Source: Candidatus Rokuibacteriota bacterium
Lineage (GTDB): Bacteria > Methylomirabilota > Methylomirabilia > Rokubacteriales > CSP1-6
Assembly: GCA_016193045.1 (NCBI GenBank)
Contig: JACPSW010000006.1
Coordinates: 1,116 to 65,115, forward strand
Length of the DNA stretch: 64,000 bases
Direction of reading: 5' to 3'
Positions 6,512-24,286 of this stretch are shown piece by piece. The translations under genes and the position numbers were made by a program. The notes under the pieces are model-generated. The model made no database searches, had not been told where the DNA came from, and saw only the letters and a program-made list of their open reading frames with translations. Each line of letters opens with the position of its first letter. Position 1 is the stretch's first letter.

Positions 6512-9181
6512 ATGGCAAAGGCGGTCTCCCACTTCTATCTTCCCGAGGACAGGGTCCCACTCCCCCCGCCGGACGCCAAGGTCTCGACCACGGCGTGCGA
6601 CTACTGCATCGTGGCGTGCGGCTACATGGTCTACACCTGGCCGCTGGGCAAAGAGGGCGGGCCCAAGGCGTCCCAGAACGCCCTCAAGGTAAACTTCCCC
6701 GCCGCGATCAACAGCGGGAAGTGGATCAGCCCCAACATGCACAACATCGTCCACGTCGAGGGCACCCCCCATCACCTCGTCGTGGTCCCTGACGGCGACG
6801 CCAGGGTCGTCAACGTCGGTGGCAACCACTCCATCCGCGGCGGAGTGCTCGCCCAGAAGTGCTTCAACCCCAACAAGCCCTCCCAGGAGCGGCTGCTTCA
6901 CCCGATGATGCGCGTCCGGGGCACGCTCCAGGCGATCTCCTGGGACGCGGCCTTCGAGGTCCTGGCGGGGGTCTCCCGCCACGTGCTCGACCGCTACGGC
7001 GAGAGCGCCTGGGCGATGAAGACGTACTCCTACCAGTACTTCGAGAACACCTACGCGATCTCCAAGCTGGCCTTTTGGGCCATCCAGACGCCCGCCTACG
7101 CCCCTCACGACAAGCCCGGCCCCGGGCCCGACACCCCCGGGCTGGACTGGGCCGGAATCGACGCCTTCAGCGCCTCCTACGAGGACTGGGGGGAGGCGGA
7201 CGTGATCTACTTCGCCGGGGTGGACCCCTGGGAGACCAAGTCGGTCCTCTTCACGACCTGGATCATGAACGGCAAGAACCCGGACAAGAAGCTCATCTTC
7301 GCCCTGCCCCGGAAAACGACGGGGGTGGCGTACGGCGAGGGCAAGGGCGGGCTTTTCCTGCCCGTGATCCCGGGGACGGATGTCGTCCTCCAGCTCGCGA
7401 TCAGCCGGGTGATTCTTGAAAATGGGTGGGAGGACAAGGCGTTCATCGAGAAGTGGGTGTCGAACGCCTGGGAGATCGACACCGGCATGGGGCGCGGCCC
7501 GCGCAACACGCCGTCAGAGTGGTTCACCACGTGGGGCCGCTACGGCGTCGGCTTCGCCGACTACAAGAAGTGGATCCTCGGCTACAAGTACGCCGAGCTC
7601 CCGACCGCCGAGCGGATCACCGGTGTGCCGGCGGACTCCATCAAGCGAGCGGCCGAGTTGCTGGCCAAGCCCCGCCCCGACGGCTCCCGCCCCAAGACCT
7701 CGTTCATGCTGGAGAAGGGGATCTACTGGTGCAACAACCTCGGCAACACGACCTCCTTCGCCGCCCTCGGCCTGCTCTGCGGGGCGGGGAACCGTCCCGG
7801 CCGCGTTATCGCGCGGGGCGGCGGCCACCAGCGCGGCTGGATGGGCGGCAGCGGCTACCCGCGGGGGATCTCCCCAGAGAAGTTCCCGGGGCGGCGGAAG
7901 AAGGAGATCGACCTGGACCGCTGGGTGGTGGATGGCCACGTGCGCTTCGCCTGGGTCATCGGCACGACCTGGCTCCAGGCCATGGCGGCCTCCCAGGAGC
8001 TGATGGACGTCTTCGAGAAGCTCACCCGGGGAAACCCGAACCAGATCAGAAGCTTCGACCCCAAATCCGCCATCGAGACGCTCAAGAGGCGCGCGGACTC
8101 GGGCGGCCTGGTCGTGGTGGACCAGGACATCTACCCCGTGGACCCCATCGGCACCCAGTTCGCCGACCTCGTCCTGCCCGCCGCGACCTGGGGTGAGGAG
8201 GACTTCACCCGCTGCAACGGCGAGCGCCGCCTGCGGCTCTACTCGAAGTTCTACGACGCGCCCGGGGAGGCCAGGCCCGACTGGTGGATCATCGCCGGCT
8301 TCGCCCGGAAGATGGGGTTCAAGGGGTTCGACTGGAAGGACTCCAACGAGGTCTTCGAGGAGTCGGCCCGCTTCGGCCGCGGCGGCGTCCTCAACTATCA
8401 CCCCCTCGTCGTGAAGGCCAAGCGCGAGGGCAAGCGCGCCCACGATCTCCTGCGCCAGTACGGGACCGAGGGGATCCAGACGCCGATCCGGATGGTCGGC
8501 GGAGCCCTCGTGGGGACCAAGCGCCTGCACGATTCGACGCTCCAGCTCGGGCCCCCGGAGGGCGTCACGGTCCATCCCAAGTGGCTCACCTCGTTCGACA
8601 CCCACACGGGCAAGGCCATCCTCCTCCGGAGCTACTGGGAGGACTTCCAGGACTTCCACGAGGCGGTGAGCCCCGTGGGAGACGAGCTCTGGGTGACCAA
8701 CGGCCGGATCAACGAGCTCTGGCAGTCGAACTTCGACGACCTCCGCCGCCCCTACATCATGCAGCGCTGGCCCTATCAATTTCTAGAAATCCACCCGGAG
8801 GACGCCAAGGCCCGCGGGATCGAGTCCGGAGACTTGGTGGCCATCGAGAACGACAACGTCCTGGTTCAGACCGGGGGGTATCTCGGCGTGGACGACAACG
8901 AGCTCTCCTTCGCCGAGCTCCGGAAGGCCGGCCACATCCAGGCCACCACCGGGAGCTTCAACGCGGTGGCGATGGTGACCGACGCGGTCCGGAAGGGCGT
9001 GACGTTCGCCTACTTCGGCTTCTCCGGCAACCCCGCGAACTCCGTAGTCCCGCGGGTCCCCGATCCCGTGACCAACCGCTACCGCTTCAAGCTCGGCAAG
9101 GGCCGCATCACCAAGATCGGCGAGTCGCCCTACAAGCGCTCCTTCACCTCCATGAGCTTCGCGCCGCGGCCGATCGCGTAG
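6512..9181 (+). CDS. Molybdopterin (bis-MGD) oxidoreductase large subunit, arsenite-oxidase (AioA) / iodate-reductase (IdrA) clade
   Basis: N-terminal TTACDYCIVACGYMVYTW matches the AioA-type C-X2-C-X3-C [3Fe-4S] motif (cf. CHFCIVGCGYHVY). 889 aa. RBS gaggagg 9 nt upstream of ATG 6512. No signal peptide, consistent with hitchhiking on the Rieske TAT signal. Confidence 0.88.
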   Translation: MAKAVSHFYLPEDRVPLPPPDAKVSTTACDYCIVACGYMVYTWPLGKEGGPKASQNALKVNFPAAINSGKWISPNMHNIVHVEGTPHHLVVVPDGDARVVNVGGNHSIRGGVLAQKCFNPNKPSQERLLHPMMRVRGTLQAISWDAAFEVLAGVSRHVLDRYGESAWAMKTYSYQYFENTYAISKLAFWAIQTPAYAPHDKPGPGPDTPGLDWAGIDAFSASYEDWGEADVIYFAGVDPWETKSVLFTTWIMNGKNPDKKLIFALPRKTTGVAYGEGKGGLFLPVIPGTDVVLQLAISRVILENGWEDKAFIEKWVSNAWEIDTGMGRGPRNTPSEWFTTWGRYGVGFADYKKWILGYKYAELPTAERITGVPADSIKRAAELLAKPRPDGSRPKTSFMLEKGIYWCNNLGNTTSFAALGLLCGAGNRPGRVIARGGGHQRGWMGGSGYPRGISPEKFPGRRKKEIDLDRWVVDGHVRFAWVIGTTWLQAMAASQELMDVFEKLTRGNPNQIRSFDPKSAIETLKRRADSGGLVVVDQDIYPVDPIGTQFADLVLPAATWGEEDFTRCNGERRLRLYSKFYDAPGEARPDWWIIAGFARKMGFKGFDWKDSNEVFEESARFGRGGVLNYHPLVVKAKREGKRAHDLLRQYGTEGIQTPIRMVGGALVGTKRLHDSTLQLGPPEGVTVHPKWLTSFDTHTGKAILLRSYWEDFQDFHEAVSPVGDELWVTNGRINELWQSNFDDLRRPYIMQRWPYQFLEIHPEDAKARGIESGDLVAIENDNVLVQTGGYLGVDDNELSFAELRKAGHIQATTGSFNAVAMVTDAVRKGVTFAYFGFSGNPANSVVPRVPDPVTNRYRFKLGKGRITKIGESPYKRSFTSMSFAPRPIA

Positions 9182-10191
9182 CGAGGGGGGTGTGCTTTGC
9201 AGCGCGAAAATATCTCATCGGGTGTGAGCAATGAAATCGCGGTCTTCGGGCCCAGCACGTCGATACGTAAGATTCTGTCCGGATTGCGCAAATCGACCTT
9301 TCTGTCGATGCTCGCGGCGAGATAGTCAATGATCTCCTTCGTATGATATTGGCGCCAGCGCCGTTTTTCCACCTCCATGGCCCAGGTGTCATCCTGATCG
9401 ATCAGATCCCTTATGTGCGTCTCGATCACCGACTTCATCGCCTGAAGCTCCGTTTCGCACCAGAAATCGACAGGGACCCATTTCACCGCGAATCGGAAGA
9501 TTGGCCCCCCTTCGAATAATTCCCTGCATCGCCTGATGACGTCTCGGTTATTCAAAGTGGTGCGGACGATGGCGATGCCTGGGACATTCGTCTTTTCGAT
9601 CTGGGGATGTGGATCCCCAAACTGCCGGAGAATGCGCGTTATTTCATGGCGTGCGGGATGGAACTGCCTCCACGGGTAGGAAACGAGGAGTTCATTCGTG
9701 CCCATGGTTGGCATGAGCGCATCCGAGTCCAGGCGTTGGGCTCTTTCTGAACCGCCGCAGATTCCTTTCAAGGGCACGTACCGCACCTCACAAATGATCT
9801 GTCTGACGGTGCCAGTCTCGGTCTTTTCAGCGAGAACGAGATTCTGAACATCGTCTTCAATCATCGGGACGATGAGCCGTCCACCCGTTCGCAACTGATC
9901 GATCAGCGGCGGGGGTATCTTTCGGCAGGCCGCCGTCACGGCGATTCTGTCATAGGGGCTCATCTCCGGACACCCCAGCCCCCCATCCCCCTGGATCAGG
10001 ACGATGTCGCGGTAGCCGGCCCGTTCGAGATTTTCTTTGCCGAACGCAAAAGTCAATGGATCGATTTCGACGGACACGACGAGACCCTCGGGGCCGACGA
10101 CTTCTCGCGCCAGGGCGGTCCCATAGCCCGAGCCCAGGCCGATCTCGAGAAAGCGATGGCCTTGATCCAAGCCGAGCGGCTCGTAAAACAA
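9130..10191 (-). CDS. Protein-L-isoaspartate O-methyltransferase-like domain fused to an unrecognised roughly 200-aa C-terminal domain; N-terminus truncated, possible pseudogene
   Basis: PIMT motifs (FLEIGLGSGYGTA ... VRYVPLKG) begin at residue 14. The only start is TTG at 10191. An in-frame TGA lies 12 codons upstream, and PIMT-like sequence (EATISCPHSY, cf. GQTISQPY) continues beyond it. Lower GC than the core. Convergent 52-nt overlap with the molybdoenzyme gene. Confidence 0.55.
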   Translation of the reverse strand: MFYEPLGLDQGHRFLEIGLGSGYGTALAREVVGPEGLVVSVEIDPLTFAFGKENLERAGYRDIVLIQGDGGLGCPEMSPYDRIAVTAACRKIPPPLIDQLRTGGRLIVPMIEDDVQNLVLAEKTETGTVRQIICEVRYVPLKGICGGSERAQRLDSDALMPTMGTNELLVSYPWRQFHPARHEITRILRQFGDPHPQIEKTNVPGIAIVRTTLNNRDVIRRCRELFEGGPIFRFAVKWVPVDFWCETELQAMKSVIETHIRDLIDQDDTWAMEVEKRRWRQYHTKEIIDYLAASIDRKVDLRNPDRILRIDVLGPKTAISLLTPDEIFSRCKAHPPRYAIGRGAKLMEVKERL

Positions 10192-10887
10192 GGGATAACT
10201 GTGGGGACAGGAGATGGTCGCCTCTCACTGGACTTTCGCGGCTCGCTCCTTTTCCAATTCCTCCCGGCTCTTGGTGGGCGCCTTCGGCGGTGGGATGATC
10301 CAGCCGTGCATTCTTGCCTCGCTCAAGCGCTGGACAGGCGGGTGGGGGGTCCCAATAAGGAGCGGGAAACGTGAGGATCGGCCCAAAAAAAAAATGCCCT
10401 GGAAGCTATCTGAAGCGCTTCCTCCTTACCTTCCTTTTGCCCTTCGAGATTAGTGTCAACCTCGACTGACCGTCGGCTGGTTCGGTTTCCGCAGCTCCGG
10501 AACTTCAACTTCCAGGGTACCCACAATCTAAACCCCGCCTCACCCGCTGTCAATGAGCCGTTCACTCTAATCAAAATGCATGGGAAGAACAAGACTATTC
10601 ACGCCGACTGCGGCGAGCACCTGCCGGGAAGTCTGTGGACGAGCGGCCGGGCCCGCCCCATGCGAGCCGATCTCGAAGCCTAGGGTGGGGGCAGACGATG
10701 TCCCAGTCGCCCCGTCAGATGGGGCGGTGCCACCCCATCAACTCCTTGAAGACGGCTATTGAACTCTATGGTCCGTAACGAAATCAAGGTATTAGAGGGA
10801 CGCCCGCTCTGGCACTGCGGTTGCTCAGTCAACTGGGTTGGCAAGTCCGAAGCAAACAAGACAGGCTCGCCAAGTGGGGGTGACTCG

Positions 10888-11316
10888 ATGAATATCGCAA
10901 GCATCCTGGCGACTAAGGGCGGCCAAGTCATGACGATCCGTCCCGAGCAAACAGTCAGGGAGGCCGTCGCGTCACTCGTCAAACATAATATTGGTGCGCT
11001 CATCGTCGTGAACGATGTCGACAAACCCATCGGGATTATCACCGAGCGCCACATTGTGCGTGAAGTGGCGAGAAACGAGCAGATCTTCACGCAAACCATC
11101 CGTGAGGTTATGACACAGGACTTGCTCACCGGAACGCCGCAGGATGATCTGATGTCGGTCGCCCATGTCATGACCGAACGGCGAATTCGCCATTTGCCGG
11201 TCATGGACAAAGGGAAGCTCATCGGCATCGTGTCCATTGGGGACGTGGTCAAGGCCCAGCGGGACACGTACCGGGGTGAGGTCGAGACCTTGCAGACGCA
11301 GATTCTCGGGAGTTGA
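10888..11316 (+). CDS. CBS-domain pair protein
   Basis: Two CBS motifs (IGALIVVNDVDKPIGIITERHIVREV; IRHLPVMDKGKLIGIVSIGDVV). Internal ATG 10888 follows ggggg. Confidence 0.8.
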   Translation: MNIASILATKGGQVMTIRPEQTVREAVASLVKHNIGALIVVNDVDKPIGIITERHIVREVARNEQIFTQTIREVMTQDLLTGTPQDDLMSVAHVMTERRIRHLPVMDKGKLIGIVSIGDVVKAQRDTYRGEVETLQTQILGS

Positions 11317-11493
11317 CGCGTCCGCGGCAAACGCTCTGAGCCCGCTGGTTCTCCTCCGAGGGAGCTGGATCATGACGAAGACGGACCTGGTGGGCCGAAC
11401 TGGCGAAGGTATCCAATCTGACGAAGAGGGAAAGCGTGTCCAGTGGACGATGACCCGATACGAGTGAGAATGAGTCCCCGAAGGATTCGGACA

Positions 11494-12105
11494 ATGGCAA
11501 GGAGGGATCCACCTGCCGGACTCGGACACAAGTGCCTCATGTTGCTCCCTATACTCCTGGCCCTGTGGGGCCTGGCCGGCTGCGCCACCGCCTATGTCCG
11601 GGGCGAGACCGCCCTTCGTCAAGAGCGCTACGACGAGGCGGCGGGCTATTTCATCGAAGCCCTCGCCACGGACCCCGGACGGATCGACGCTCGAACCGGG
11701 CTCGGCATCACCCGGTACAAGCAGGGGAAGCTCGACGAAGCGGAAGACGCCCTCCGACAGGTCATCACCCAAGTGCCCGGCCGCTCGGAGGCACGGCTCT
11801 ACCTGGGCCTCACATATCTGCAAAAGGGGGAGAACAGCTCGGCCGAGGAGCAATTGACTGCGGTTCTGGCTCTCAAACCCCACCGCCGTATCGCGGCCCA
11901 GATCGAACGGGCCCTCAGGCTGATTCGATCCGGCCCCCTCTCGGACGACACAAGAATGTTCGTCGCGGCGAGTCTCGAAGACGAGGCGGAGTGGGAATGT
12001 GAGGTGCGTGACGCGGAGCGCCAGCGATGCGTTTATGTGGAGCCGGTGTGGCCTGTGTATTGGCACTCCTACTGGTACCCGTATTGGTACCGTTATCGCT
12101 TCTGA
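11494..12105 (+). CDS. TPR-repeat lipoprotein with aromatic-rich C-terminal tail
   Basis: Lipobox LLALWGLAGC. TPR-like repeats. Unusual tail VWPVYWHSYWYPYWYRYRF. Start placed at M18 of the ORF. Confidence 0.55.
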   Translation: MARRDPPAGLGHKCLMLLPILLALWGLAGCATAYVRGETALRQERYDEAAGYFIEALATDPGRIDARTGLGITRYKQGKLDEAEDALRQVITQVPGRSEARLYLGLTYLQKGENSSAEEQLTAVLALKPHRRIAAQIERALRLIRSGPLSDDTRMFVAASLEDEAEWECEVRDAERQRCVYVEPVWPVYWHSYWYPYWYRYRF

Positions 12106-12275
12106 GCTGGAACTGGAGGGTGCGAGGTGTCAATCTTCGGACGAACGATTCGGAGAACTCGAGCGGAGGCGGGATCCATTTGCTGCCGGACCGCCACAAG
12201 CGGCGCCGCCTGATCACTCAGCTCCCCGGCACCCTCAAGGCGAGGCTCCTGGACGAGCCGCCTGGGGCACTCCTC

Positions 12276-12458
12276 ATGGATCTGGACGCATTCCTGCAGC
12301 ATGTCGCAGCCGGGCTCGGCACGCATACGTCGGGAGGCAAACGCGCCGTGCGCATCGTGTACCGCGCGCTCCGCGAAGCGGTGTCCCCAGGCGAGCTGGC
12401 CAAAGCCGAGGCACACCTCCCAAAGGAGGTCGCCGGCTTTCTCGAGCGTGCCGCATGA
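12276..12458 (+). CDS. Short DUF2267-like protein (N-terminal half only)
   Basis: MDLDAFLQHVAAGLG...AVRIVYRALREAVSPGELAKAEAHLPKEVAGFLE resembles the first half of DUF2267. The ORF ends after about 60 aa. Confidence 0.3.
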   Translation: MDLDAFLQHVAAGLGTHTSGGKRAVRIVYRALREAVSPGELAKAEAHLPKEVAGFLERAA

Positions 12459-12504: not shown

Positions 12505-12545
12505 GGCAAAGTTGAGCGCGAGGAGGGCAAAGTTTAGGGCAAAGT
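12505..12545 (+). promoter_or_regulatory. Three direct repeats of GGCAAAGT upstream of the tRNA-Asp promoter
   Basis: Copies at 12505-12512, 12526-12533 and 12538-12545, just upstream of the -35 element. UP/Fis-like arrangement typical of stable-RNA promoters. Confidence 0.4.
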
Positions 12546-12559
12546 GGGGGGGTTCGCCA

Positions 12560-12588
12560 TTGACTCGGCCCGCGTAACCATGTAAATT
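12560..12588 (+). promoter_or_regulatory. Sigma70-type promoter of the tRNA-Asp gene
   Basis: TTGACT (12560-12565), 17-nt spacer, TAAATT (12583-12588). The tRNA starts 8 nt downstream. Confidence 0.6.
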
Positions 12589-12596
12589 CTCAGCGC

Positions 12597-12641
12597 GGGG
12601 TCGTGGTGCAGCCTGGTTAGCACACTGGACTGTCAATCCGA
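12597..12641 (+). tRNA. tRNA-Asp(GTC) 5' fragment (acceptor 5' strand, D-arm, anticodon arm; no T-arm or 3' acceptor)
   Basis: GGGGTCG-TG-GTGC-AGCCTGGTTA-GCAC-A-CTGGA-CTGTCAA-TCCGA with canonical U8, A14, G18G19, A21, U33 and R37. Sequence after position 43 is not tRNA-like. Confidence 0.7.
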
Positions 12642-13331
12642 TCCGCAGTATGAGCCCCGTTGGTAAGTGCGTAACTTGCCAGCGGGTTTTTCTTTCTCTC
12701 GTTGGCTAGGGTCGGGTAGTTTCGGGTGGTTTCTAGGTGCTGACGGGCATAATGGCGGGCATAACGCCAGGGGGCCGAGCCCCGCACGCAGGTCGAGCCC
12801 CGGCACGATTGGAGCCCGTAGGTCGGGGGGGAGGAGGACAAGGACGCAAGCGCTCAACCAGGTCCCTTCGATTGCTCGCCTCAGTAACCGATGGCATTGG
12901 GAACAGAAGGGGCCTTTGATGAACTCATCGAGACTGCCGCGAGAGGGGTTCTCGACGGTACGGAAGGCAGATAGGAAGTGTGGCATGATCTCCCAATCGA
13001 GATCGAAGTGAGAAAAGGGGTAGAAGTCGGGCGGCTTCGCCGTTCGGGTGGGGTCAGGTGACGGTGGTGGAGTAGACGTGGCGACTGGGCGACGAGTCAA
13101 CTGATGTCGGTGGATGATCAGGGCGAGGACCAAGACAAGGGCCACCGAAAGCAGCAGCCACGCTGGTGTTGGAAGAGGGGTCCTCAGGTACGGACCGATT
13201 ACGCGGACGTAGGCGACCACAACTGCGAACAGTATAGCCAGTAACGCAAGAATCCCGGTGGCGATGAGATTCGCTGTCACCTGATTGAAGATGTTCCTGA
13301 GCCAATTGCGGATGCTTCGCCATGACCACAT
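12633..13331 (-). CDS. Hypothetical membrane protein (two N-terminal TM helices, Cys-containing C-terminal region)
   Basis: 232-aa ORF. Its C-terminal 40-50 codons run through repeat copy 1 and the tRNA fragment, so the native C-terminus is probably replaced or non-coding. Confidence 0.4.
   Translation of the reverse strand: MWSWRSIRNWLRNIFNQVTANLIATGILALLAILFAVVVAYVRVIGPYLRTPLPTPAWLLLSVALVLVLALIIHRHQLTRRPVATSTPPPSPDPTRTAKPPDFYPFSHFDLDWEIMPHFLSAFRTVENPSRGSLDEFIKGPFCSQCHRLLRRAIEGTWLSACVLVLLPPDLRAPIVPGLDLRAGLGPLALCPPLCPSAPRNHPKLPDPSQREKEKPAGKLRTYQRGSYCGSD
12662..12691 (+). terminator. Hairpin (ggtaag..cttgcc) plus T-run directly after the truncated tRNA-Asp
   Basis: Stem-loop followed by agcgggttttt. 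The T-run is the first base of repeat copy 1. Confidence 0.5.
12681..12768 (+). repeat. Copy 1 of a roughly 90-bp repeat family (core TTTTTCTTTCTCTCGTTGGCTAGG ... CGGGCATAATGGCGGGCATAACGCC)
   Basis: 21/23 identity in the core and about 65% over the next 55 nt to the copies at 31088..31172 (+) and 39130..39225 (-). All three begin at a terminator T-run. Confidence 0.75.
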
Positions 13332-13780: not shown

Positions 13781-13860
13781 CAGGATCGGACCAACGTGAA
13801 CACCCAGATCGGCATGGTGAACACGTAGATCGGTGATCGTGAACAGGCGACCCTTTCCCC
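13775..13860 (+). repeat. IS21-family left terminal region with multiple direct GTGAACAC...GATCGG repeats
   Basis: ctGAACACcaGGATCGGaccaacGTGAACACccaGATCGGcatgGTGAACACgtaGATCGGtgatcGTGAACAgg, iterated subterminal repeats as in IS21 IstA binding sites. Immediately upstream of istA. Confidence 0.5.
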
Positions 13861-13937
13861 CCAGGGGGGCGGGCGCCTGAGGGCAGCGACGCTGGATGGT
13901 CCAGCGCGCCGTCCGCCCCGAGCCAGAAGGGGGCGCG

Positions 13938-16973: not shown

Positions 16974-17084
16974 GGTCGTCCCCTTTCGCGGGGGCCGGGT
17001 GGGACGGCATGCAGCGGCTCAGTTACCTTAGCCCCACTCGGCCTGGTTCTTGAAGATCGGCCGACAGAGAAATCGTAGCTCTCT

Positions 17085-17984: not shown

Positions 17985-18075
17985 CGCGGACTGCCCCTTT
18001 AAAGCTTAAGGGGGACTCTCGGATGAGTCCCCCTCACCTGGTTACCTGGTCGTCACGAACCGCGGCGCACGAGCG

Positions 18076-20391
18076 CTAGTGTGCGAGCGGATCGGGGCGC
18101 AGCTGGAACTTGACCATATATCCGATTTCGGTCTCGATGTGCCAGACGGCGACCGTACCGTAGTCCGCCCACAAGCCCCGGCCTTTCCACCCCGCGTTCG
18201 GATCATCGATTCTCCCATCGAGCCCGCGATGGTAGAACCCGAGCGGATATGGCACGCGCGCTACCAAGAACTCCTTGGTCGCCGGGTCCAACACGAGGAG
18301 TGCGTCTGACGTACTCCCGGTCGCGATCGGGACATTCTCTCCCAGCCCGAGCGTGTTATGCTGGTCGACCCAGTTATAGTAGTGGAAGTCAGCACTTCCG
18401 GGATCGGTCACGCCCTTCATCTGCGGCCCAGGGGTTGGATACAGGGTCCACCCTTCAGGGCACTGCCGCCCTGTACCCCAAGCGCGCGTACATATGCTGC
18501 GGTCGAAACTGGCGAGGTGTCCGCTGCCGCCGAGCGCGGTCCAGATCAGGCCGTTCTTGTCCACGTCGATCCCTCTCGGTCCGTGGCCAGTCACGGTTCC
18601 CGGGGGGAGGTTCGGGTCCGCGACCGAGGGAGGTTCGTAGGCTTCATGTCGGCCGGTCAACGGGTCATACCGTTCGATTCGCCCGGGAAAACTCGAAACT
18701 GTTGGCCCTTCCGTGTCCAGACCCCCACTCGTCAATGGCAGGACACCGGTCCAGATACTCCCATCAGCGGGGTTGGGGATGATCCCATAGTGAAAGCCGA
18801 CCAATGGAGTATCAGGTACGCCGTCACCGTTAGAATCCACGACAACATAGGACCAGCCTTGGGCGCGCCCAACGCTACTGGGATCGTTCGGGTTGAACTT
18901 GCTCGGGTCAAACCACCCGATGACGAGTAAGTCCCCGCTCAGCCAAAGAATGCCCTTCTTGTCAAATTGCAGATGGTGCGTACCGTAGCAGGTGTCGATC
19001 AGCACAAATTCTTTGTTCCCCGGGTCATAGTATCCGAGCTGCCGCGTGCTCAAGAGTGCCGGCGCTGGGGCGGTGGGATCGGGCAAGGGCGTCTGGTTTG
19101 TGAGGCAAAAGTCCGGCACGTCGTTTGCCTCTCGGATCTTCACAGTGATCCAGACCTTACCGTCGGCATCGATCATGGGGTTATGCGGGTTCATGGGGTT
19201 TGTCCAGATGATCTCGGTGCCCCACTTGGCTGACGGGAAACCCGCGGACATGGTCTGGGGGAAAAACGTGCTAGTATTGCCGACCGGATTCGGGATCTTG
19301 ATCATGCTCGACGTGTGGGCCACGGGGTCGGTGATGATGAGGCGGTCATTTCCGAATTCAACACCGTACACGGGCCCGTTTGCGTTGACCGTAGGGTTTC
19401 GTTTGTCCGTCACAACCTCGTCGTGCGCATACGACACCTCATCGCCCCATGCCCACATCGTGATCACGACGTTTCGCTCCGGTCCTTGCGGCCTCGGTGG
19501 CTGCGTGGGCACCTCGCCCGCGGCCATTCGTTCCGCCCAATCTCCGAACGTGGCGAGGCCGGCTTCTCTGCCGAAGGCGCTCATCGAGCCGCTCATCTGC
19601 GCGCCACGCTGGCCCGAACGGACGTGACGATCAAAGGCGGCAGCACCGGACTCATGGTGGCCGGGATCGTAAATGCCAGCGATGTGATCATGGAGCCGGG
19701 TCGCATGGTTGCCCAGCTGGTGGCAGAGCTGGCAACCGAGCTTCATCTGACTGACCCACTGGGCCTGATGCTCCATGCTCGTAGAAATCCCGTTCCCGCC
19801 TTGGGATGTCGGGCCCGTTCCCGGGAACTGGCTCTTGTCCGGAACTTGGAATATGGAGACCCAATAATTCTCGGGGTAGACCTGTGCTGCCTCGGCAGGG
19901 CAGCGGGCTGGCTCGGCCACGAGCGTCACGAGCTGACCCGTCGACACCTGCACCCGGGCTGAATCGCGGAGCCCGTAGCCCCGCACCCACACGTCATACA
20001 CGGCGGTCGGCAGGTCCGGCAGGACAAACCGTCCCTCGCTGTCTGTCACTGCAATCTTGATATACCTGGTGGGCAGACGACCACGGTGGAGCGCGCTCTC
20101 AGGGACTGTGATGATGTCGGCTTCCGCGATCACCCATACGCCAGCCACATCAACGCCCGGAGGTACGATGACTTTTCCGCCGATACCATCGGAATCAATA
20201 GCAACCTTTGGGGGTTGAAGCTGGGCCCCCTTAGGCCTGAATGGAGTAGGGCTGATACCGCCGCACGGGTCGAGCGTAGTTCTGATGTGCTCCCCGACAT
20301 GGGCGACCGCGGCGGAAGGACCACCAAAGAAGATGGCGAAACCAAAGAAAAGGGCAAGAGCGGATAGCACTATCGCTTGTGGACTTTTCAT
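18076..20391 (-). CDS. Secreted multidomain protein: CarboxypepD_reg-like domain, single c-type heme site (CQLCH), Vgb/NHL-like beta-propeller
   Basis: Signal peptide after the second ATG (ggaggag RBS). IAVTDSEGRFVLPDLPTAVYDVWVRGYG is a CarboxypepD_reg motif. CQLCHQLGNH. Repeated D-x-x-G-x-(I/L)-W blades (DADGKVWITV, DKKGILWLSGD, PADGSIWTGV, DKNGLIWTAL). Confidence 0.55.
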   Translation of the reverse strand: MKSPQAIVLSALALFFGFAIFFGGPSAAVAHVGEHIRTTLDPCGGISPTPFRPKGAQLQPPKVAIDSDGIGGKVIVPPGVDVAGVWVIAEADIITVPESALHRGRLPTRYIKIAVTDSEGRFVLPDLPTAVYDVWVRGYGLRDSARVQVSTGQLVTLVAEPARCPAEAAQVYPENYWVSIFQVPDKSQFPGTGPTSQGGNGISTSMEHQAQWVSQMKLGCQLCHQLGNHATRLHDHIAGIYDPGHHESGAAAFDRHVRSGQRGAQMSGSMSAFGREAGLATFGDWAERMAAGEVPTQPPRPQGPERNVVITMWAWGDEVSYAHDEVVTDKRNPTVNANGPVYGVEFGNDRLIITDPVAHTSSMIKIPNPVGNTSTFFPQTMSAGFPSAKWGTEIIWTNPMNPHNPMIDADGKVWITVKIREANDVPDFCLTNQTPLPDPTAPAPALLSTRQLGYYDPGNKEFVLIDTCYGTHHLQFDKKGILWLSGDLLVIGWFDPSKFNPNDPSSVGRAQGWSYVVVDSNGDGVPDTPLVGFHYGIIPNPADGSIWTGVLPLTSGGLDTEGPTVSSFPGRIERYDPLTGRHEAYEPPSVADPNLPPGTVTGHGPRGIDVDKNGLIWTALGGSGHLASFDRSICTRAWGTGRQCPEGWTLYPTPGPQMKGVTDPGSADFHYYNWVDQHNTLGLGENVPIATGSTSDALLVLDPATKEFLVARVPYPLGFYHRGLDGRIDDPNAGWKGRGLWADYGTVAVWHIETEIGYMVKFQLRPDPLAH

Positions 20392-20607
20392 CTTTCTCCT
20401 CCTCTCCCTAATTCGCACCCTGACTTTCCACCTTTGTGAATCTTTGCGCTGTCCGAGAGCACCCCACTGGCAACGCTACAATCGTCACGCGGCGCTGCCG
20501 GGCGCAGGCAATTCAGAGTTCCCTGTAAATACTTGCGCATCACGATATCCCCGCCGTTTTAACCGTCAACCCCTGATCAGGGGCTTTCGGAGCCCCCAAA
20601 TGGGGGA

Positions 20608-20695
20608 GGCGTGGCGGCAGGATTACAAGAACCTCTGGCCTCACAACAGCTTGGGGCATCGAACCCCGGCGAGTTCCGGGCTGGCTTTGTGGTGA
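20608..20695 (+). pseudogene. C-terminal remnant of an rve/DDE transposase (IS3/IS481-like)
   Basis: RQDYKNLWPHNSLGHRTPASSGLALW matches the Y-N-x-x-R-P-H-x-S-L-G-x-x-T-P transposase C-terminal motif. The upstream ORF sequence is noise. Confidence 0.4.
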
Positions 20696-20833
20696 ACCCG
20701 GCACCGAGAGGGCTCCGAAAGTTGCACACCTAGCGGCTCAGATCGGGGGGTGGACGAGATCTTGAACTCCGCCATGTTGTCCGGCTATCATGCTGCTGTA
20801 AATGTCGTACCCGCCGGGCACGGGCATCGACTT

Positions 20834-22546
20834 ATGAGCAGAGAGTCCACCCAGCAATCCTTGACGCACGCCGACAGCCGCGTGTCGGCACTACTCGAGA
20901 TCGCCGCCGCGATCAACTCCACCTTGGATTTCAAGATGCTCCTAAAGGTCTTCGCGAAGAAAGCAGCTCAGGCTTGCGGCTTTGATCGGTGCTCGATCTT
21001 CCTGTGGCGCGATGGCGTTCTGCTCCCCGTGATGTCGCAGTACGCTTCCGGGGTGAGCCGCGACCACCTCTGGAGGGTCTTCAAGTCTCTTGGGCCTTAC
21101 CACTCGGACGACGTTCCGGCCTTTGGTCGAGCCCTCCGTGAGCGGAGGCCGGTTCTTGTGGAGGACGTGGGCCGCAGTGGACTCGTACCGACCGATTGGT
21201 TCGACATTTTCGACCTGCACTCCGTTCTCGTATTCCCGCTTCTTCGGCAGGATCTTCCTGTCGGGATCATGCACTTCGATAACTGCCTGAGCTCGATGCC
21301 GTTCAACCAGGCTGACGTCGATCTCGGTAGCGCGATCGCGAGCCAGCTCGCGTTAGCCATCGACAATGCGCGCCTTGTCGAGGAGACCAGAAATAGACTC
21401 CAAGAGACAGCGACGCTGTTAAGCGTCGGGCGCACTGTAGGCTCGACGCTGGACCTTGGCGAAGTCGCTCGCCGACTCAGCCACGCCGCCGCGGCTGCTA
21501 TCAACGCGGACTCCGCTGGGATCTACGTCAGCAGCGAGGATAATGCGATGCTGAAGCCGCTCGCCGGCTACCATGTTCCAAAACCGCTCCTCGAGTGGAT
21601 GGGGAGCGAGCGCGTGTTGCACAATTTTCACCACCTAGGCCGTATGTTGAAGGAGTCGGGGCATAGCCTGTGGTCTGACGACGTGCGAAATGATCCCCGA
21701 TTCGAGCACGAGATCTTCCGTCGTTTCCCTATGCAGTCGATCCTAGTGACGAGTCTTGAGGCTATGGACGAGCTGTTAGGTGTGCTCGTCTGCGTGTGGT
21801 GGACCGAGCGCCGGCGGTTTTTAGAAAAGGAGCTGCGCCTAATTGAAGGGATCGCTGACCAGGCGGCGATCGCGATCGCCAATGCGCGCCTGTACGCGAA
21901 GGCTGAAGAGCTGGCCGTGAGCCGGGAGCGGCTACGTATGGCGCAGGAACTTCACCACAAGTTGAGTCAGAGTGTTTTCTCGATGCGGCTTACGCTCGAG
22001 TGGTGCCTCCACCAAACGCTTGACTCAGGAGTTCGTTCACGGCTCGAACAGGTCAAACAAGAGGCCAGCGCCATCATGGGGCAGATGCGTCAGCTGATCT
22101 ACGAGCTGACTCCTGAAAGTGGCTCAGGGATGACCTTCGCCGCACGGCTTCGGAAACTGGTGGACGATTTCCGAGAGCTGAGCGGCCTTGCCGTGGAATA
22201 CGGGGCGCAAGGGGACCTTGCGAGATTGGGTGAGTCACAGCAGGAGGCCCTCCTGAAGGCGTTGCAGGAGAGCTTGGCGAACATTGTGAAACACGCGCGA
22301 GCGTCGCACGTAAGTGTCCGCGTTGATGTCCTCGCGGAGGAGGTTCAGTTCGAGGTGAGGGACGACGGCATTGGCGTTCCCGCAGGCTTCAGGAGCGCAG
22401 TCTACGCGAGCTCTGGCCACCTCGGGCTTTTCGGGATGATCGAACGCATCAAAGCAATAGGTGGCGAAATTGAGTTAAACAACTCCGCTCCCTCGGGTTT
22501 TTGCCTGAGAGGCAAGTTTCCGGTGGGGTATGGCGAGCATGTCTAA
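20834..22546 (+). CDS. Cytoplasmic tandem-GAF sensor histidine kinase (HisKA_3 + HATPase_c)
   Basis: Two GAF-like regions (...ENARLYAKAEEL), H-box ELHHKLSQSVFSMRLTLEW, ATPase LQESLANIVKHARASHVSV. Start could instead be 20750. Confidence 0.85.
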   Translation: MSRESTQQSLTHADSRVSALLEIAAAINSTLDFKMLLKVFAKKAAQACGFDRCSIFLWRDGVLLPVMSQYASGVSRDHLWRVFKSLGPYHSDDVPAFGRALRERRPVLVEDVGRSGLVPTDWFDIFDLHSVLVFPLLRQDLPVGIMHFDNCLSSMPFNQADVDLGSAIASQLALAIDNARLVEETRNRLQETATLLSVGRTVGSTLDLGEVARRLSHAAAAAINADSAGIYVSSEDNAMLKPLAGYHVPKPLLEWMGSERVLHNFHHLGRMLKESGHSLWSDDVRNDPRFEHEIFRRFPMQSILVTSLEAMDELLGVLVCVWWTERRRFLEKELRLIEGIADQAAIAIANARLYAKAEELAVSRERLRMAQELHHKLSQSVFSMRLTLEWCLHQTLDSGVRSRLEQVKQEASAIMGQMRQLIYELTPESGSGMTFAARLRKLVDDFRELSGLAVEYGAQGDLARLGESQQEALLKALQESLANIVKHARASHVSVRVDVLAEEVQFEVRDDGIGVPAGFRSAVYASSGHLGLFGMIERIKAIGGEIELNNSAPSGFCLRGKFPVGYGEHV

Positions 22547-23198
22547 GATCCGGATCGTCGTCGTGGATGATCACGAGGTTGTCCGGCACGGCCTCCGGTT
22601 GTCCCTGGAGCTCGAGGCTGATATGGTGGTCGTGGGCGAGGCACGGACGGGCGAAGAAGCTGTCACCGTGGCGTTGCAGAAACGTCCCGACGTTTTACTG
22701 CTGGACGCACGGCTTGGGGACGTCGATGGGCCGGAGGTCTGCCGTCAGGTGCGCGCGGTGGCTCCAAACATAGCGATCTTGATGCTCAGCAGCTATTTGC
22801 AGGATGGCTTGGTTCTTCGAAGCCTAGTCGCCGGAGCGAAGGGTTACATCAGCAAGGATGTTGAACTTGCTGACCTCAAGAAGATAATACGCTCGGTCTA
22901 CCGGGGGAACGCGGTGCTGGACCCAAAGGTGACGAAACAGCTGATTTCGACGGCGACGGGCGAGAGCAAGCTACCAAAGCTGCAAGAAAGGCTGACAAAG
23001 GGTACAGTGTCCCTCACGGAGACTGATCTTCTCATCATGCGACATCTCGCCAGCGGGTTGACCAATAAGGAGATCGCCGCCATGGTTCACTTGAGCCCAT
23101 ATACTGTCAAGGATCACCTGCTGAAGATCTGCAGTGTGCTCAACGCGAGGTCGCGTACCGAAGTCGTCGCGGAGGCGTTGAGGCGCGGTCTGATCTGA
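22530..23198 (+). CDS. NarL/FixJ-family response regulator
   Basis: IRIVVVDDHEVVRHGL, D in LLLDARLGD, LuxR HTH TNKEIAAMVHLSPYTVKDHLLKI. 17-nt overlap with the kinase gene. Confidence 0.9.
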   Translation: MASMSKIRIVVVDDHEVVRHGLRLSLELEADMVVVGEARTGEEAVTVALQKRPDVLLLDARLGDVDGPEVCRQVRAVAPNIAILMLSSYLQDGLVLRSLVAGAKGYISKDVELADLKKIIRSVYRGNAVLDPKVTKQLISTATGESKLPKLQERLTKGTVSLTETDLLIMRHLASGLTNKEIAAMVHLSPYTVKDHLLKICSVLNARSRTEVVAEALRRGLI

Positions 23199-23383
23199 TC
23201 AGTTCTGTTTCATCCCCGGACTCCAGCGCCTTCGCGACCCCCCACGGCTGCGCAGCCAGGTGGGCCCCGTGGCGTCCGCCTGAAACTCGCTAGAAAATTA
23301 GGCCAAACGTTTCACTCTTGCGCGGGGGATCGTCAGGCTCCCCCCGCGGCGGTGGTATTCTATTTCAAAGGACAGCATTTGGC

Positions 23384-23422
23384 GATAGACCTTTTCTATT
23401 GAGCCGTTATAGGAGGTCTATC
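23384..23422. repeat. 9-bp perfect inverted repeat GATAGACCT...AGGTCTATC in the AT-rich island border
   Basis: gatagacct(23384-23392) ... aggtctatc(23414-23422), within a roughly 350-bp non-coding stretch beside the Xis-like gene. Confidence 0.4.
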
Positions 23423-23549
23423 CAGTAGGTTTCAGGGACCGTGTAGTATTCAGGATATCCAACCCCCGTAACCAATCAGATCTCAAGCCACTCCCTGCGC
23501 ACGTCCGCGCTGGCGCGGGGGTCGTTGGGGGTGCCGGCCGCTTTGGGGC

Positions 23550-23861
23550 TCATGCCAGCTCCTTCCGGGTCTCGATCAGGCGATCAAGATCTGCCCGCTC
23601 GATCCTGATGAGCCTCTCGCCCAGGCGGACCGGGGCGAGCTTCCCGCTCTCCACCCAGCCCCGGACCGTCCGATAGGACACGGCGAGGTACTCAGCGGTG
23701 GACTGCTGAGCCAGCGCTCTCCCGTCCTTGCCGCTGCTCGGGCTGCCGCCAGCCTCGGGTCTTCCCGCGTCATGCCTGGCCGGGGCCTTCCTCGGCCGGT
23801 CGGGCCGGCGTCGGAGCTTGAGGCTGGCCGTAGCGAGTGGGAGGGAAGATGGGGCACTCAT
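23550..23861 (-). CDS. AlpA/Xis-like HTH (HTH_17, excisionase family) DNA-binding protein
   Basis: AEYLAVSYRTVRGWVESGKLAPVRLGERLIRIERADLDRLIE. Basic low-complexity N-terminus. At the right edge of the low-GC island. Confidence 0.6.
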   Translation of the reverse strand: MSAPSSLPLATASLKLRRRPDRPRKAPARHDAGRPEAGGSPSSGKDGRALAQQSTAEYLAVSYRTVRGWVESGKLAPVRLGERLIRIERADLDRLIETRKELA

Positions 23862-24286
23862 CGAATCCTGGTCCTTTGACGTATTCACAGCCTCGCAGTG
23901 GATCCGGAGTGGCTCAATGGTCAAAGTGCCTCGTCTTCGAGCAGCATTCTGAGTGCCCCCTGTGGGTGGCGTCTGGCCGTTCCGGGCTCTCGGTCAGGAA
24001 CGAGGCGCGGCCGGATGGGGGACTCCCGGATCGGTACCGCCAGGGAACGGAATCAGGCCGCCGCGCCCGCGGCGAACGCTACCCCGAGATCCTGGTTCAG
24101 CGTGTTGATCAGCCCTCGGACCTCCTGAGGGTCCAGGCCGGCGCGCCTCCGGTCCGTGTCGACCTGCACCGGAGTGAGTGGGTCCGGAGAGAACCTGGGC
24201 GCGACTACGCCGAGGCGAGTTCCCTGGCAAAACGTAGTGCAACGGCGGCCGGCGGTCAAGGGCGCGCCTGCGCCGGGCGTTTTCGC

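Follow-up and report, generated by a model that had tools for sequence, protein, structure and literature searches.

A lower-GC stretch beside a molybdenum-enzyme operon in a Rokubacteria genome is probably the worn remnant of at least two mobile islands inserted at the 5' half of tRNA-Asp

Genomic islands accompanied by 5' fragments of tRNA genes are a known minority class (159 of 3919 islands; PMC4383910), and 125 tandem arrays of islands have been documented (PMC4383910). Complete elements of this type on other Rokubacteria contigs have the order tRNA 5' fragment, P' arm, cargo, Xis gene, tyrosine integrase gene, P arm with promoter and intact tRNA gene. The integrase homologs lie upstream of a co-oriented tRNA gene in all six cases examined; Phage_integrase genes end 11-60 nt 5' of tRNA-Asp (L081/L098, L102) or tRNA-Pro (L100, L106), and in L105 a tRNA-Ala lies 1 kb downstream of the integrase and a 39-nt 5' fragment 6.2 kb upstream. 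Contig L106 carries a complete 10.9-kb element, composed of tRNA-Pro nt 3-41, P' repeat (E 3e-19), cargo, integrase, P arm and intact tRNA-Pro, with GGGCACA tandems in both arms. In L077 the tRNA-Asp 5' fragment is followed 6063 nt downstream by an intact tRNA-Asp that has a P arm in front of it, which gives a 45-nt direct repeat; the element contains no integrase. The P arms 5' of Asp and Pro tRNAs have common tandem arm motifs followed by TTGAC-17-TGTAnAnT, which argues that the predicted promoter is borne by the element.

The locus described here lies in a 64,000-nt stretch of contig JACPSW010000006.1 (the window), where positions 9182-23924 have a mean GC of 0.611 vs 0.688 for the rest. 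Measured in 1-kb windows, GC ranges over 0.58-0.62 from 9.0 to 13.5 kb and over 0.54-0.62 from 16.5 to 23.5 kb, with flanks at 0.66-0.72; the drop claimed in an earlier, sequence-only reading of this DNA is therefore real, but its range of 50-58% underestimated GC by about 4 points. Composition changes sharply on the left, at the aioA-like stop (9181), and on the right GC recovers between 23.5 and 24.3 kb. The block itself is uneven, with segments 9190-12596, 12640-13760 and 16761-23549 at 0.597, 0.591 and 0.594, the MBL gene region at 0.643 and the IS21 debris at 13761-15295, a patch of host-like composition, at 0.687. GC3 separates the island genes (0.63-0.74) cleanly from the flanking genes (0.87-0.95), a gap of about 0.2, with istA' (0.88), the MBL gene (0.80) and the Xis-like gene (0.79) as exceptions within the block.

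The foreign origin proposed for the block is supported by this composition and by its absence from the closest relatives. Synteny of the whole block is not conserved: none of the 14 Rokubacteria loci that share the operon has it, and neither do the three metagenome contigs that are closest. The comparison with sister loci that had been suggested did yield a block-free site: metagenome contigs L085, L090 and L094, 94-97% identical to the aioA 3' end, have the order aioA, CMD gene, tRNA-Val remnant and intact tRNA-Asp, the last about 750 nt past the aioA stop. The region probably represents the scarred remains of a tRNA-Asp integration hotspot whose native position is directly 3' of the aioA-like operon.

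Table 1. Features of the lower-GC stretch and its edges, in window coordinates
Feature	Position	Strand	Evidence
Left junction, host aioA-like 3' flank to island Y	9190..9206	.	identity breakpoints
Fused pseudogene ORF, THUMP/TAN1-like + PCMT	9130..10224 (ORF 9130-10191)	-	Pfam PCMT 2.5e-37, THUMP
Leftover PCMT 5' end, first ~42 codons	10226..10347	-	blastn vs L097; 133-nt deletion splits off rest
Degraded homolog of 117-aa gene, no known family; no intact ORF	10345..10832	-	81% identity, 11 gap openings to L097 1800-2285
CBS-pair protein, apparently intact	10891..11316	+	Pfam CBS 3.7e-25; 92% nt identity to L097
Scar of deleted HU-family gene	11437..11474	.	comparison with L097
TPR lipoprotein, apparently intact, likely start 11494	11443..12105	+	Pfam TPR_16 4.5e-19; 93% nt identity to L097 185-816
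DUF2267 fragment	12027..12458	+	Pfam DUF2267 profile positions 38-120 of 122
P arm of island Y	12505..12596	+	80% identity to L102 11069-11192, spanning int 3' end
tRNA-Asp(GTC) 5' fragment, nt 1-43, shared core (O)	12597..12639	+	identity to intact tRNA-Asp
P' arm of island X	12640..12775	+	alignment; nhmmer E 3.9e-22; terminator scan
ORF, two predicted membrane helices, truncated or read-through	12633..13331	-	3' part crosses P' arm 12640-12775
Orphan Xre/ParS-type antitoxin	13409..13760	-	Pfam HTH_3 2.5e-9; Xre_MbcA_ParS_C 26.4 bits (cut-off 24.5)
Dead IS21-family copy 1	13769..15050	+	terminal repeats; Pfam rve, Mu-transpos_C_2; GC3 0.88
Dead IS21-family copy 2, inverted, inside istA of copy 1	15050..15295	-	Pfam IstB_IS21 E 2.7e-20; repeats
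Cargo block, four genes	15547..20418	-	Pfam; contig L075
MBL-fold hydrolase	15547-16746	-	Pfam
55-aa ORF	16806-16973	-	cargo block
299-aa protein, no known family	17085-17984	-	cargo block
771/780-aa protein	last of four genes in 15547..20418	-	Pfam, AF2 model
Possible C-terminal tail of IS3/IS481-type transposase, weak	20606..20695	+	Pfam rve_3 E 0.0012, below cut-off
GAF-GAF-HisKA_3 kinase + NarL/LuxR-type regulator	20750..23198	+	Pfam
AT-richer spacer with unique 9-bp inverted repeat (23384-23422)	23199..23549	.	no att features found
Excisionase-like HTH_17 gene, likely start 23861	23550..23924	-	Pfam HTH_17 5.9e-11; TIGR01764

Within the block, the segment 12505-12775 reads as an integrase-proximal arm with promoter, a 43-nt tRNA-Asp 5' half and a terminator-bearing arm (Table 1). 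The P arm, whose profile has its sole match in the window here (E 8.8e-23), contains the last integrase codons, three GGCAAAGT repeats and a promoter-like site, TTGACT-17-TAAATT, predicted at 12560-12588, 9 nt 5' of the tRNA start (one promoter found in a scan vs 0.1 expected). The tRNA fragment is unique in the window, and its break lies in the anticodon stem, on the 3' strand. Over its 43 nt it does not differ from the intact tRNA-Asp genes of 16 metagenome contigs; neither ARAGORN nor Rfam detected it. The 3' half is absent throughout the window, and the broken tRNA-Asp noticed earlier is accordingly real, but only as a 5' half. The P' arm consists of a 16-nt spacer, a predicted terminator hairpin with a T-run (12656-12686), TTGGCTAG, and GGGCATAA-N4-GGGCATAA at 12745-12763. 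In L077, L083 and L106, too, this arm comes after a tRNA 5' fragment, and the joint of tRNA-Asp fragment and P' arm recurs in L077/L088/L093 and L083/L095, where the fragment comes directly after tRNA-Val. Copies of the P' arm in the window are found at 12653-12761, 31061-31167 and 39255-39147, including the edges of two other lower-GC stretches, and one of these follows a 5' fragment of tRNA-Arg(TCT) whose break is at the position seen in tRNA-Asp. The P' arm is the recurring repeat at such borders, and not the 9-bp inverted repeat at 23384-23422 that had been put forward for this role, which exists but is absent from 106 related loci.

The two arms are discordant, the P arm being of the GGGCAAAGT type (as in L102) vs the GGGCATAA type of the P' arm (as in L081/L083). 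Because they carry different repeat motifs, two elements would meet here, by a rule of arm-motif concordance drawn from a few complete examples. To judge from its anatomy, the site at 12.6 kb looks like the joint of two tandem islands arranged head to tail. The internal boundary that had been proposed at this position is real, but the islands appear to be tandem rather than nested, as the tRNA-Asp fragment is flanked by different arms. The att-like joint, together with the complete elements on other contigs, supports the derivation of the block from integrative elements. The ORF that crosses the P' arm has no Pfam, NCBIfam or PHROG match.

Reconstructed from this one internal joint, the explanation of the whole region by tandem islands is one that we regard as likely. 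Recombination would occur at the anticodon loop, but the identity block would be formed by the tRNA gene's 5' half, so that a dead 5' fragment would stay behind upstream after integration. The P' arm, opening with the predicted intrinsic terminator, would come after this fragment, and the intact tRNA gene would be rebuilt downstream, behind the element's Xis, its integrase and a P arm with arm-type repeats and its own tRNA promoter. Island Y (now 9.2-12.6 kb) might have been the first to insert upstream of tRNA-Asp, followed by island X, of the other arm subtype and beginning at 12640, which would have entered the rebuilt tRNA gene and so created the joint of Y P arm, 5' fragment and X P' arm. 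Deletions might then have taken the native spacer, the tRNA-Val remnant and the left end of Y (joint at 9190-9206), as well as both integrase genes, the HU gene and part of PCMT. Two IS21-family copies, one inserted into the other, would subsequently have been truncated, and the right end of X with the intact tRNA-Asp would have parted from the locus. An intact tRNA-Asp, the tRNA-Val end and the downstream (B') sequence were not found in the window; no outer att site survives, and no direct repeats flank the 9181-23924 block. The earlier statement that no integrase survives is borne out by tblastn searches of the window with five family members, and no remnant beyond about 6 codons is present.

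The independent contig L097, collinear with island Y at 81-93% identity, has the Y-like stretch flanked by tRNA-Val and an intact tRNA-Asp; relative to it, the copy in the window shows additional deletions. No tRNA-Asp 5' fragment follows tRNA-Val in L097, so that one more deletion has to be assumed if Y is of integrative origin. At the left edge, the 94-97% identity to L085/L090/L094 ends at about 9189 and identity to L097 begins at about 9205-9207; the THUMP ORF ends in 21 codons that are aioA sequence read in antisense, and the THUMP gene is without its final ~8 codons. The joint at 9190-9206 stems from an illegitimate deletion, cuts through a gene and is not an att site. The gene formerly called a PIMT fusion is rejected as such: in L097 PCMT and THUMP are two genes with an 11-nt overlap, their homologs are separate proteins (~240 and ~190 aa), and in the window they were joined through small indels. 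PCMT has a 133-nt internal deletion (by blastn, L097 2342-2462 = 10347-10226 and L097 2596-3601 = 10224-9205) and is present in the fused ORF from residue 87 onward (Pfam profile positions 65-206 of 210); from that residue the ORF is 96% identical to P0121, and it is 68% identical to P0122. The HU gene of L097 (817-1122; Bac_DNA_binding 2.2e-34) has no counterpart in the window. The DUF2267 fragment sits in ~400 nt absent from L097, where the TPR gene is ~40 nt from the P arm; the integrase gene occupies this slot in L081/L098/L102.

The right part is a mosaic that combines an orphan antitoxin with two dead IS21 copies, one nested in the other, and with a conserved secreted-protein/kinase module. 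The antitoxin matches NF049845 at 1.9e-10, below the cut-off of that model, and no RES toxin gene follows it. Copy 1 of IS21 has three 21-nt terminal repeats (13769-13833) and an istA that starts at 13938, is split over two frames (HTH; rve plus Mu-transposase C) by a single frameshift near 14.33 kb, and breaks off around 15050. Copy 2 retains two 21-nt repeats at its end (15055-15099) and the last ~60 codons of istB (15108-15293; profile positions 185-238 of 238). The sequence-only calls of a two-frame istA and an inverted IstB tail were upheld, as were nearly all other gene calls by Pfam/NCBIfam matches; that of an rve transposase tail has a match, but a weak one. Independent contig L075 repeats 15234-22138 at 99.94%. 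Homologs of the cargo number more than 5000, the named ones from Acidobacteria at 52-55% identity. The 771/780-aa protein combines an N-terminal hydrophobic segment, a CarboxypepD_reg beta-sandwich, a helical domain with an invariant CxxCH (C220/C223/H224) and a beta-propeller, which in the AF2 model (pLDDT 72.7) is nearest virginiamycin B lyase (TMt 0.78). Its homologs elsewhere, though set in different surroundings, keep this ~290-aa partner and have a divergent GAF kinase gene nearby; for a 74%-identical homolog a divergent GAF-GAF-HisKA_3 kinase gene lies on the same contig with two genes between. Composition alone ties 15.3-23.2 kb, a stretch bracketed by IS remnants, to element X, and we infer that 15.3-23.9 kb arrived within X. 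The Xis-like gene scores 41.7 bits against TIGR01764 (cut-off 28.8) and shares 63% identity over 52 aa with a small HTH_17 gene (9715-9870) of L102, the nearest MAG, directly 5' of an integrase of the relevant family. Its excisionase homology stands, but the gene is inverted relative to the anchor at 12.6 kb, 11 kb away, and is on the wrong strand for it. At 23.2-23.9 kb no tRNA fragment, arm motif or repeat was found, and neither this limit nor 9.19 kb is an att site.

A less probable account is that only the 12.5-12.8 kb joint, and perhaps Y, is site-specific, that 15.3-23.2 kb came through IS21/IS3 transposition or illegitimate recombination into a disrupted hotspot, and that the Xis-like gene stems from a third, opposite element. 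The MBL/299-aa/780-aa block does lie between an IS21 remnant (15050-15295) and the rve_3-like tail (20606-20695), the GC3 of the MBL gene is intermediate, the recurrence of the 780-aa homologs with the ~290-aa partner and GAF kinase suggests a self-contained module, and the inverted Xis-like gene and the right limit, where no att feature was found, fit as well. However, no intact IS, matching IS ends or target duplications surround this block, the rve_3 match is weak, and in GC 16.8-23.5 kb (0.594) is no different from the att-proximal parts (0.591-0.597). The main claim of the sequence-only reading, a single decayed element from the aioA stop to the Xis-like gene, would explain the GC drop across the whole block and the excisionase-family gene at its right edge; it is improbable in view of the discordant att-type joint inside the block, a left edge that cuts a gene without an att feature, the lack of flanking direct repeats and the occurrence of the left 3.4 kb alone between tRNA-Val and tRNA-Asp in L097.

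An assembly chimera, in which contigs of a lower-GC organism were joined at repeats to a high-GC Rokubacteria contig, appears slightly less probable still. The sequence is apparently metagenome-derived, composition changes abruptly, genes are truncated at joints, and exact-protein look-ups (AioA, NarL, Xis) gave no independent contig across the outer joints. Against this, the block is flanked left and right by host-like DNA and contains a host-like IS, independent assemblies repeat 9205-12639 (L097, from another sample) and 15234-22138 (L075), the fragment-plus-P' joint occurs in five other contigs, and the aioA/tRNA-Asp neighbourhood is as in close relatives. A native, vertically inherited region with GC lowered by local mutation or selection has nothing specific in its favour beyond CBS, TPR and two-component genes of ordinary housekeeping-type families, and its absence from all the compared loci, the GC3 gap, and the pseudogenes, IS debris and att arms render it most improbable.

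Tyrosine-integrase islands of this type are common in Rokubacteria/Methylomirabilota, and the lower-GC block is a genuine island, no longer mobile, of a kind that is known though uncommon. What is left is immobile cargo, which takes in the putative secreted propeller protein with the heme motif and its ~290-aa partner as well as the MBL hydrolase and the GAF kinase/NarL pair; this two-component pair probably regulates the divergent secreted-protein genes.

Directly after the stop codon of the aioA-like gene at 9181, GC falls from 0.66-0.72 to 0.58-0.62 in 1-kb windows; it is back to 0.68-0.71 at 13.5-15.5 kb, lies at 0.54-0.62 at 16.5-23.5 kb and has recovered by 24 kb. By segment, GC is 0.597 for 9190-12596, 0.591 for 12640-13760 and 0.594 for 16761-23549, as compared with 0.688 for the remaining window. 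Third-position GC (GC3) is a clearer measure than total GC: it is 0.63-0.74 in the island genes vs. 0.87-0.95 in their neighbours, the exceptions inside the block being istA' (0.88), the MBL gene (0.80) and the Xis-like gene (0.79). The compositional anomaly pointed out by the sequence-only reading is thus real, although the percentages given there fall short by a few points and composition varies within the block; Pfam and NCBIfam uphold the gene list of that reading and its coordinates.

The Mo-enzyme operon to the left (~3.77-9.19 kb) shows 78-97% DNA identity to Candidatus Rokubacteria/Methylomirabilota MAGs and metagenome contigs, and one Nitrospinae-labelled MAG is also among its carriers. 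The operon (3770-9189) encodes two CCP_MauG di-haem peroxidase paralogs, a Rieske subunit and an AioA-like subunit with 3Fe-4S Rieske_3 domain, and it behaves as a 5.4-kb cassette, with synteny lost at both edges in nearly every genome. In all 14 Rokubacteria genome loci that have downstream sequence, homology to the window ends at 9168-9189, about the aioA stop, and the regions that follow are unlike one another too, so that no classical (aioA-LacI) empty site can be recovered from these genomes. A scan of metagenome contigs with the 43-mer of the tRNA-Asp fragment yielded 21 loci, three of which (L085, L090 and L094) match the aioA 3' end at 94-97% identity as far as window position 9189. 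In these three contigs aioA is followed by a CMD-family gene, a tRNA-Val remnant and an intact tRNA-Asp ~750 nt past the aioA stop; a tRNA-Asp beside aioA is therefore the state in the closest relatives. In the window, 3.4 kb of lower-GC DNA lies between aioA and tRNA-Asp, and the tRNA-Asp is broken. The tRNA-Val upstream of the intact tRNA-Asp in L085 (2200-2280), and also in L089, L090 and L094, consists of a 5' acceptor strand joined to a T-arm/acceptor 3' end, and is no longer called by ARAGORN.

What is left of tRNA-Asp in the window is a 5' fragment, identical to the intact tRNA-Asp genes on other contigs, that was missed by both ARAGORN and Rfam; half-tRNAs are invisible to Rfam, whose sole match in the block at E<=1 was a chance CRISPR-DR33. 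No intact tRNA-Asp exists in the 64-kb window, which likewise contains neither the 3' end of tRNA-Val nor the B' sequence that follows tRNA-Asp. A tRNA-Asp 3' half was sought at the breakpoints by a T-arm/acceptor pattern search and by Smith-Waterman alignment with shuffles, and was found at none of them. The two arms that flank the fragment are described in the table below, together with other features of the block and the contexts of related integrases.

Features of the lower-GC block and integrase contexts on related contigs
Feature	Position	Description
P arm (integrase-proximal)	12505-12596	GGCAAAGT repeats; sigma-70-like promoter, TTGACT-17-TAAATT, with 9 nt between its end and the tRNA start
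tRNA-Asp(GTC) 5' fragment	12597-12639	first 43 nt: acceptor, D arm, anticodon arm and three bases past the loop
P' arm (terminator-bearing)	12640-12775	16-nt spacer, strong hairpin with T-run (terminator scan), ~90 conserved bases
IS21 copy 1, dead	13769-13833 (end repeats)	three 21-nt end repeats; istA frameshifted, cut at ~15050
IS21 copy 2, dead	15055-15099 (end repeats)	inverted, inside copy 1; two 21-nt end repeats; only the last ~60 istB codons remain
Propeller gene	18076-20418	771/780-aa protein: N-terminal hydrophobic segment, CarboxypepD_reg-like beta-sandwich, helical domain with invariant CxxCH, beta-propeller
L098		integrase (97% identity to that of L081), then tRNA-Asp
L102 (MAG nearest the window by aioA)		HTH_17 gene, integrase (61% identity), GGGCAAAGT x5, tRNA-Asp
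L100, L106		integrase, then tRNA-Pro
L105		integrase; tRNA-Ala 1 kb downstream

The conserved bases of the P' arm contain TTGGCTAG and a tandem GGGCATAA motif, and the arm follows an identical 43-nt fragment, directly 3' of tRNA-Val, in two sets of contigs (L077/L088/L093 and L083/L095). The P arm is found 5' of intact tRNA-Asp on many contigs and 5' of tRNA-Pro(GGG) in L100 and L106, always in the same layout: tandem arm motif, TTGAC, 17 nt and TGTAnAnT. Since this block travels between tRNAs of different identity, it is a property of the element and not of the tRNA. The P' arm of the window was recovered by nhmmer at E 3.9e-22, and the same profile matches the complete element L106 at E 3e-19; the P arm, which matches its profile at E 8.8e-23, is 80% identical to that of L102, including the last integrase codons. 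The two arms of the window are discordant, in that the P arm is of the L102 type and the GGGCATAA motif of the P' arm is that of the L081/L083 subtype, whereas the arms are concordant in the sole complete element that has both. This discordance argues that 12.6 kb would be the joint of two different islands in tandem, Y on the left and X on the right; the promoter, terminator and recombination activities are predicted ones. The earlier proposal of a decaying integrative element, possibly of two nested ones, was largely right as to its reality, its decay and its two parts; the discordant arms point to a tandem rather than a nested arrangement.

Island Y (9205-12639) is collinear with the independent contig L097 (GC 0.583) at 81-93% identity, and in L097 its genes are flanked by tRNA-Val and an intact tRNA-Asp. 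Compared with that contig, the window has a 133-nt deletion within the PCMT gene, indels that fuse PCMT with the neighbouring THUMP gene, a lost HU gene, a degraded 117-aa gene, an additional DUF2267 fragment at the place expected for an integrase and a left joint (9190-9206) at which the 3' end of THUMP is lost along with the spacer and tRNA-Val. What had been read as a PIMT fusion gene is thus two genes joined by indels; a natural PCMT-THUMP fusion protein was rejected as no homologue covers both halves. This ORF and several others should be annotated as pseudogenes.

Integrases that might be cognate to these arms are found on other contigs. In L081, the gene of a 374-aa Phage_integrase protein is co-oriented with tRNA-Asp and stops 11 nt before it; 6371 homologues were found at E<=1e-20, several of them labelled Rokubacteria, and six contexts were inspected. 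L106 is a complete 10.9-kb element in which nt 3-41 of tRNA-Pro are followed by a P' arm, cargo that includes a DnaB-like helicase, the integrase, a P arm and an intact tRNA-Pro, with a GGGCACA tandem common to both arms. L105 has a 39-nt tRNA-Ala 5' fragment 6.2 kb upstream of an intact tRNA-Ala, and L077, which is without an integrase, has a 45-nt direct repeat with copies 6063 nt apart. The tRNA 5' fragments end at nt 39-43, just beyond the anticodon loop, which fits the anticodon-loop crossover known for tyrosine integrases (10.1101/2020.11.02.365908). In the window itself, tblastn with L081, P0241, P0246, P0249, P0264 and P0282 was negative, five integrases of the family giving nothing below E 0.1, which bears out the earlier statement that no integrase survives; the sole trace is a run of ~6 terminal codons at 12505-12524.

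The P' arm opens island X; next come a truncated ORF that fits no known class, an orphan antitoxin gene of Xre/ParS type and the two IS21-family copies. The antitoxin shares with those of RES-Xre (ParST/MbcTA-type) modules an Xre HTH and a C-terminal toxin-binding domain, the latter detected by Pfam at 26.4 bits (cut-off 24.5); the antitoxin scores below the NCBIfam cut-off and differs from them in being without a RES gene, as the ORFs downstream match neither RES nor any other family. IS21-family elements carry istA (HTH, rve and Mu-transposase C-terminal domain) followed by istB, and have multiple short terminal repeats. Gene order, domains and repeats are matched here, but both copies are dead: istA is spread over two frames and istB covers only positions 185-238 of the 238 of its profile. 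The host-like GC3 of the IS suggests that it probably originated within the lineage, at a time when the island was already in place.

The stretch 15234-22138 is reproduced at 99.94% by the independent assembly L075, and by composition the DNA of 15.3-23.2 kb would have entered as cargo of island X. Its main gene encodes the propeller protein, whose family has >5000 homologues, the named ones being from Acidobacteria at 52-55% identity; except for a sub-threshold CarboxypepD_reg, the family has no Pfam or NCBIfam match. Across 24 of its sequences the mean column identity is 64%, with many invariant Trp, Asp and Arg residues. An AF2 model of the 780-aa protein (pLDDT 72.7) places the propeller nearest virginiamycin B lyase; a PDB sequence search was negative and a fold search gave generic beta-propeller matches only. 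Two closer homologues (74-81%) keep a ~280-290-aa partner of no known family downstream, and one of them has on its contig a divergent GAF-GAF-HisKA_3 kinase gene, with two genes between. The conserved partner and the divergent kinase suggest that the 780-aa protein and its partner (299 aa in the window) form a functional module under the control of the adjacent kinase/NarL pair, from which it is separated by a weak rve_3 tail. The two closest homologues (P0002/P0003) are also accompanied by a DUF6351 protein.

At the right border there is no arm motif, tRNA fragment or att feature. Neither a repeat search of the whole window nor short-word self-BLAST of all borders turned up, beyond chance matches, any flanking direct or inverted repeats that might serve as att sites. 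The 9-bp inverted repeat at 23384-23422, put forward earlier as a possible recurrent border motif, occurs only once in the window and in none of 106 loci; it is the P' arm that is informative as a repeat. The Xis-like gene (TIGR01764, 41.7 bits vs. a cut-off of 28.8; Pfam HTH_17, 42.9 bits vs. 27) has no adjoining integrase in the window; it is a true relative of its L102 homologue (63% identity), which immediately precedes an integrase. As the gene is encoded on the opposite strand, the right end is either rearranged or part of another element. The outer limits of the block are deletion or rearrangement joints and not the att sites of an element; look-ups of exact proteins (NarL, AioA and Xis) have no independent contig on record that crosses these joints.

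As to the kind of element that left these traces, a prophage was rejected, since PHROGs and two viral-contig scans were negative: there are no phage structural, packaging or lysis genes, and the only PHROGs matches are a methyltransferase, a repressor-type HTH protein and an excisionase. Islands or prophages of the classical 3'-side type (P4-type and related integrases) likewise have a tyrosine integrase and a small HTH excisionase, an integrase 3' end that faces the tRNA and arm-type repeats that separate the integrase gene from the core. Here, in contrast, the identity block is the 5' half of the tRNA, so that what the element has to provide for the rebuilt gene is a promoter rather than a 3' end and a terminator. 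Classical islands do occur on the 3' side of this same tRNA-Asp: in L082, a 42%-identical integrase is convergent with its 3' end, and in L098 (3474-9370) the tRNA-Asp is used on both sides, the integrase abutting the 5' end and a 48-nt 3' fragment (nt 31-78) marking the classical island 5.8 kb downstream.

The closest fit is the Islander 5'-tDNA class, in which a tyrosine-integrase island is located 5' of a tRNA gene, the intact copy adjoining the integrase and a co-oriented 5' fragment being left at the opposite end. This class accounts for 159 of 3919 islands, vs. 3760 others, and 125 tandem arrays are recorded (PMC4383910, Table 1). L106, L105 and L077 are complete relatives that fit the 5'-fragment definition, and the likeness extends to crossover in the anticodon region and to the occurrence of tandem arrays. 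The window copy has the displaced 43-nt fragment and arms homologous to those of complete, integrase-bearing elements; it differs from the class in having lost the integrase from within the island and, over 64 kb, the intact cognate tRNA at the other end, so that only the joint between two islands is kept. The Klebsiella pneumoniae islands upstream of the arg2 tRNA (arg2A-VII, integrase clade I.d) likewise show the rare upstream-side integration and a dedicated integrase clade (10.1101/2020.11.02.365908), but they use a D-loop sublocation and belong to another phylum, whereas in the fragments described here the break falls at nt 39-43, 3' of the anticodon loop. Elements of this kind are known but uncommon, and the window copy is probably an immobile remnant. 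The tRNA-Asp beside the Mo-enzyme operon appears to be a hotspot that was hit at least twice by upstream-side islands and then eroded.

Other copies of the P' arm flag two more islets in the window. At 39310-39147 (minus strand), the first 41 nt of tRNA-Arg(TCT), with the same breakpoint in the anticodon stem as in tRNA-Asp, are directly followed by a P' copy (nhmmer E 3e-28) and then by a GNAT gene in a stretch of mildly lower GC (0.655 vs. 0.70); the window has no intact tRNA-Arg. A third copy (31061-31167) is the left edge of a 2-kb low-GC islet (31061-33082; GC 0.595 vs. 0.70 and 0.69) which has a gene for a ClpP-like SDH protease and ends on the right in a decayed tRNA-Thr(CGT)-like 3' half (33037-33082), 93% identical to L102 8065-8110 (46 nt). 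Elsewhere, tmRNA, SmpB and tRNA-Leu(CAG) genes lie within 1 kb (43062-44412), and the ORF directly after tRNA-Leu (44095-44412), with an island-like GC3 of 0.71 and no match to any family, may be what is left of a further small integration. The pair of gidB (rsmG) and parA/soj at the window end (62450-64000; GC3 somewhat lower, 0.73-0.79) suggests that the window is near the chromosomal origin region.

We consider it improbable, though worth stating, that the P-O-P' joint (12505-12775, O being the shared 43-nt core) is equivalent to an attP, and could serve as a landing pad or excision substrate for integrases elsewhere in the genome, that the "dead" island might thereby be mobilisable in trans, and that Rokubacteria/Methylomirabilota might host a large undescribed family of tyrosine-integrase elements that swap the front halves of tRNAs, each with a promoter of its own for the rebuilt tRNA and a terminator for the orphaned fragment, and can thereby invade polycistronic tRNA operons such as tRNA-Val/tRNA-Asp.

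The more interesting by-product of this analysis is the family of elements to which the remnant points, with integrases at tRNA 5' ends and a predicted element-borne tRNA promoter and terminator; in a limited literature, we found no description of such a promoter (P arm) or of a terminator at the start of P'. A promoter-carrying P arm explains the conserved ~90-nt block before tRNA-Asp or tRNA-Pro in many uncultured Rokubacteria, and the P' repeat is a usable marker of island borders in their genomes. The locus enlarges the rare class of 5'-fragment islands by examples from an uncultured phylum, and suggests how such elements cope with separating a tRNA gene from its operon promoter.
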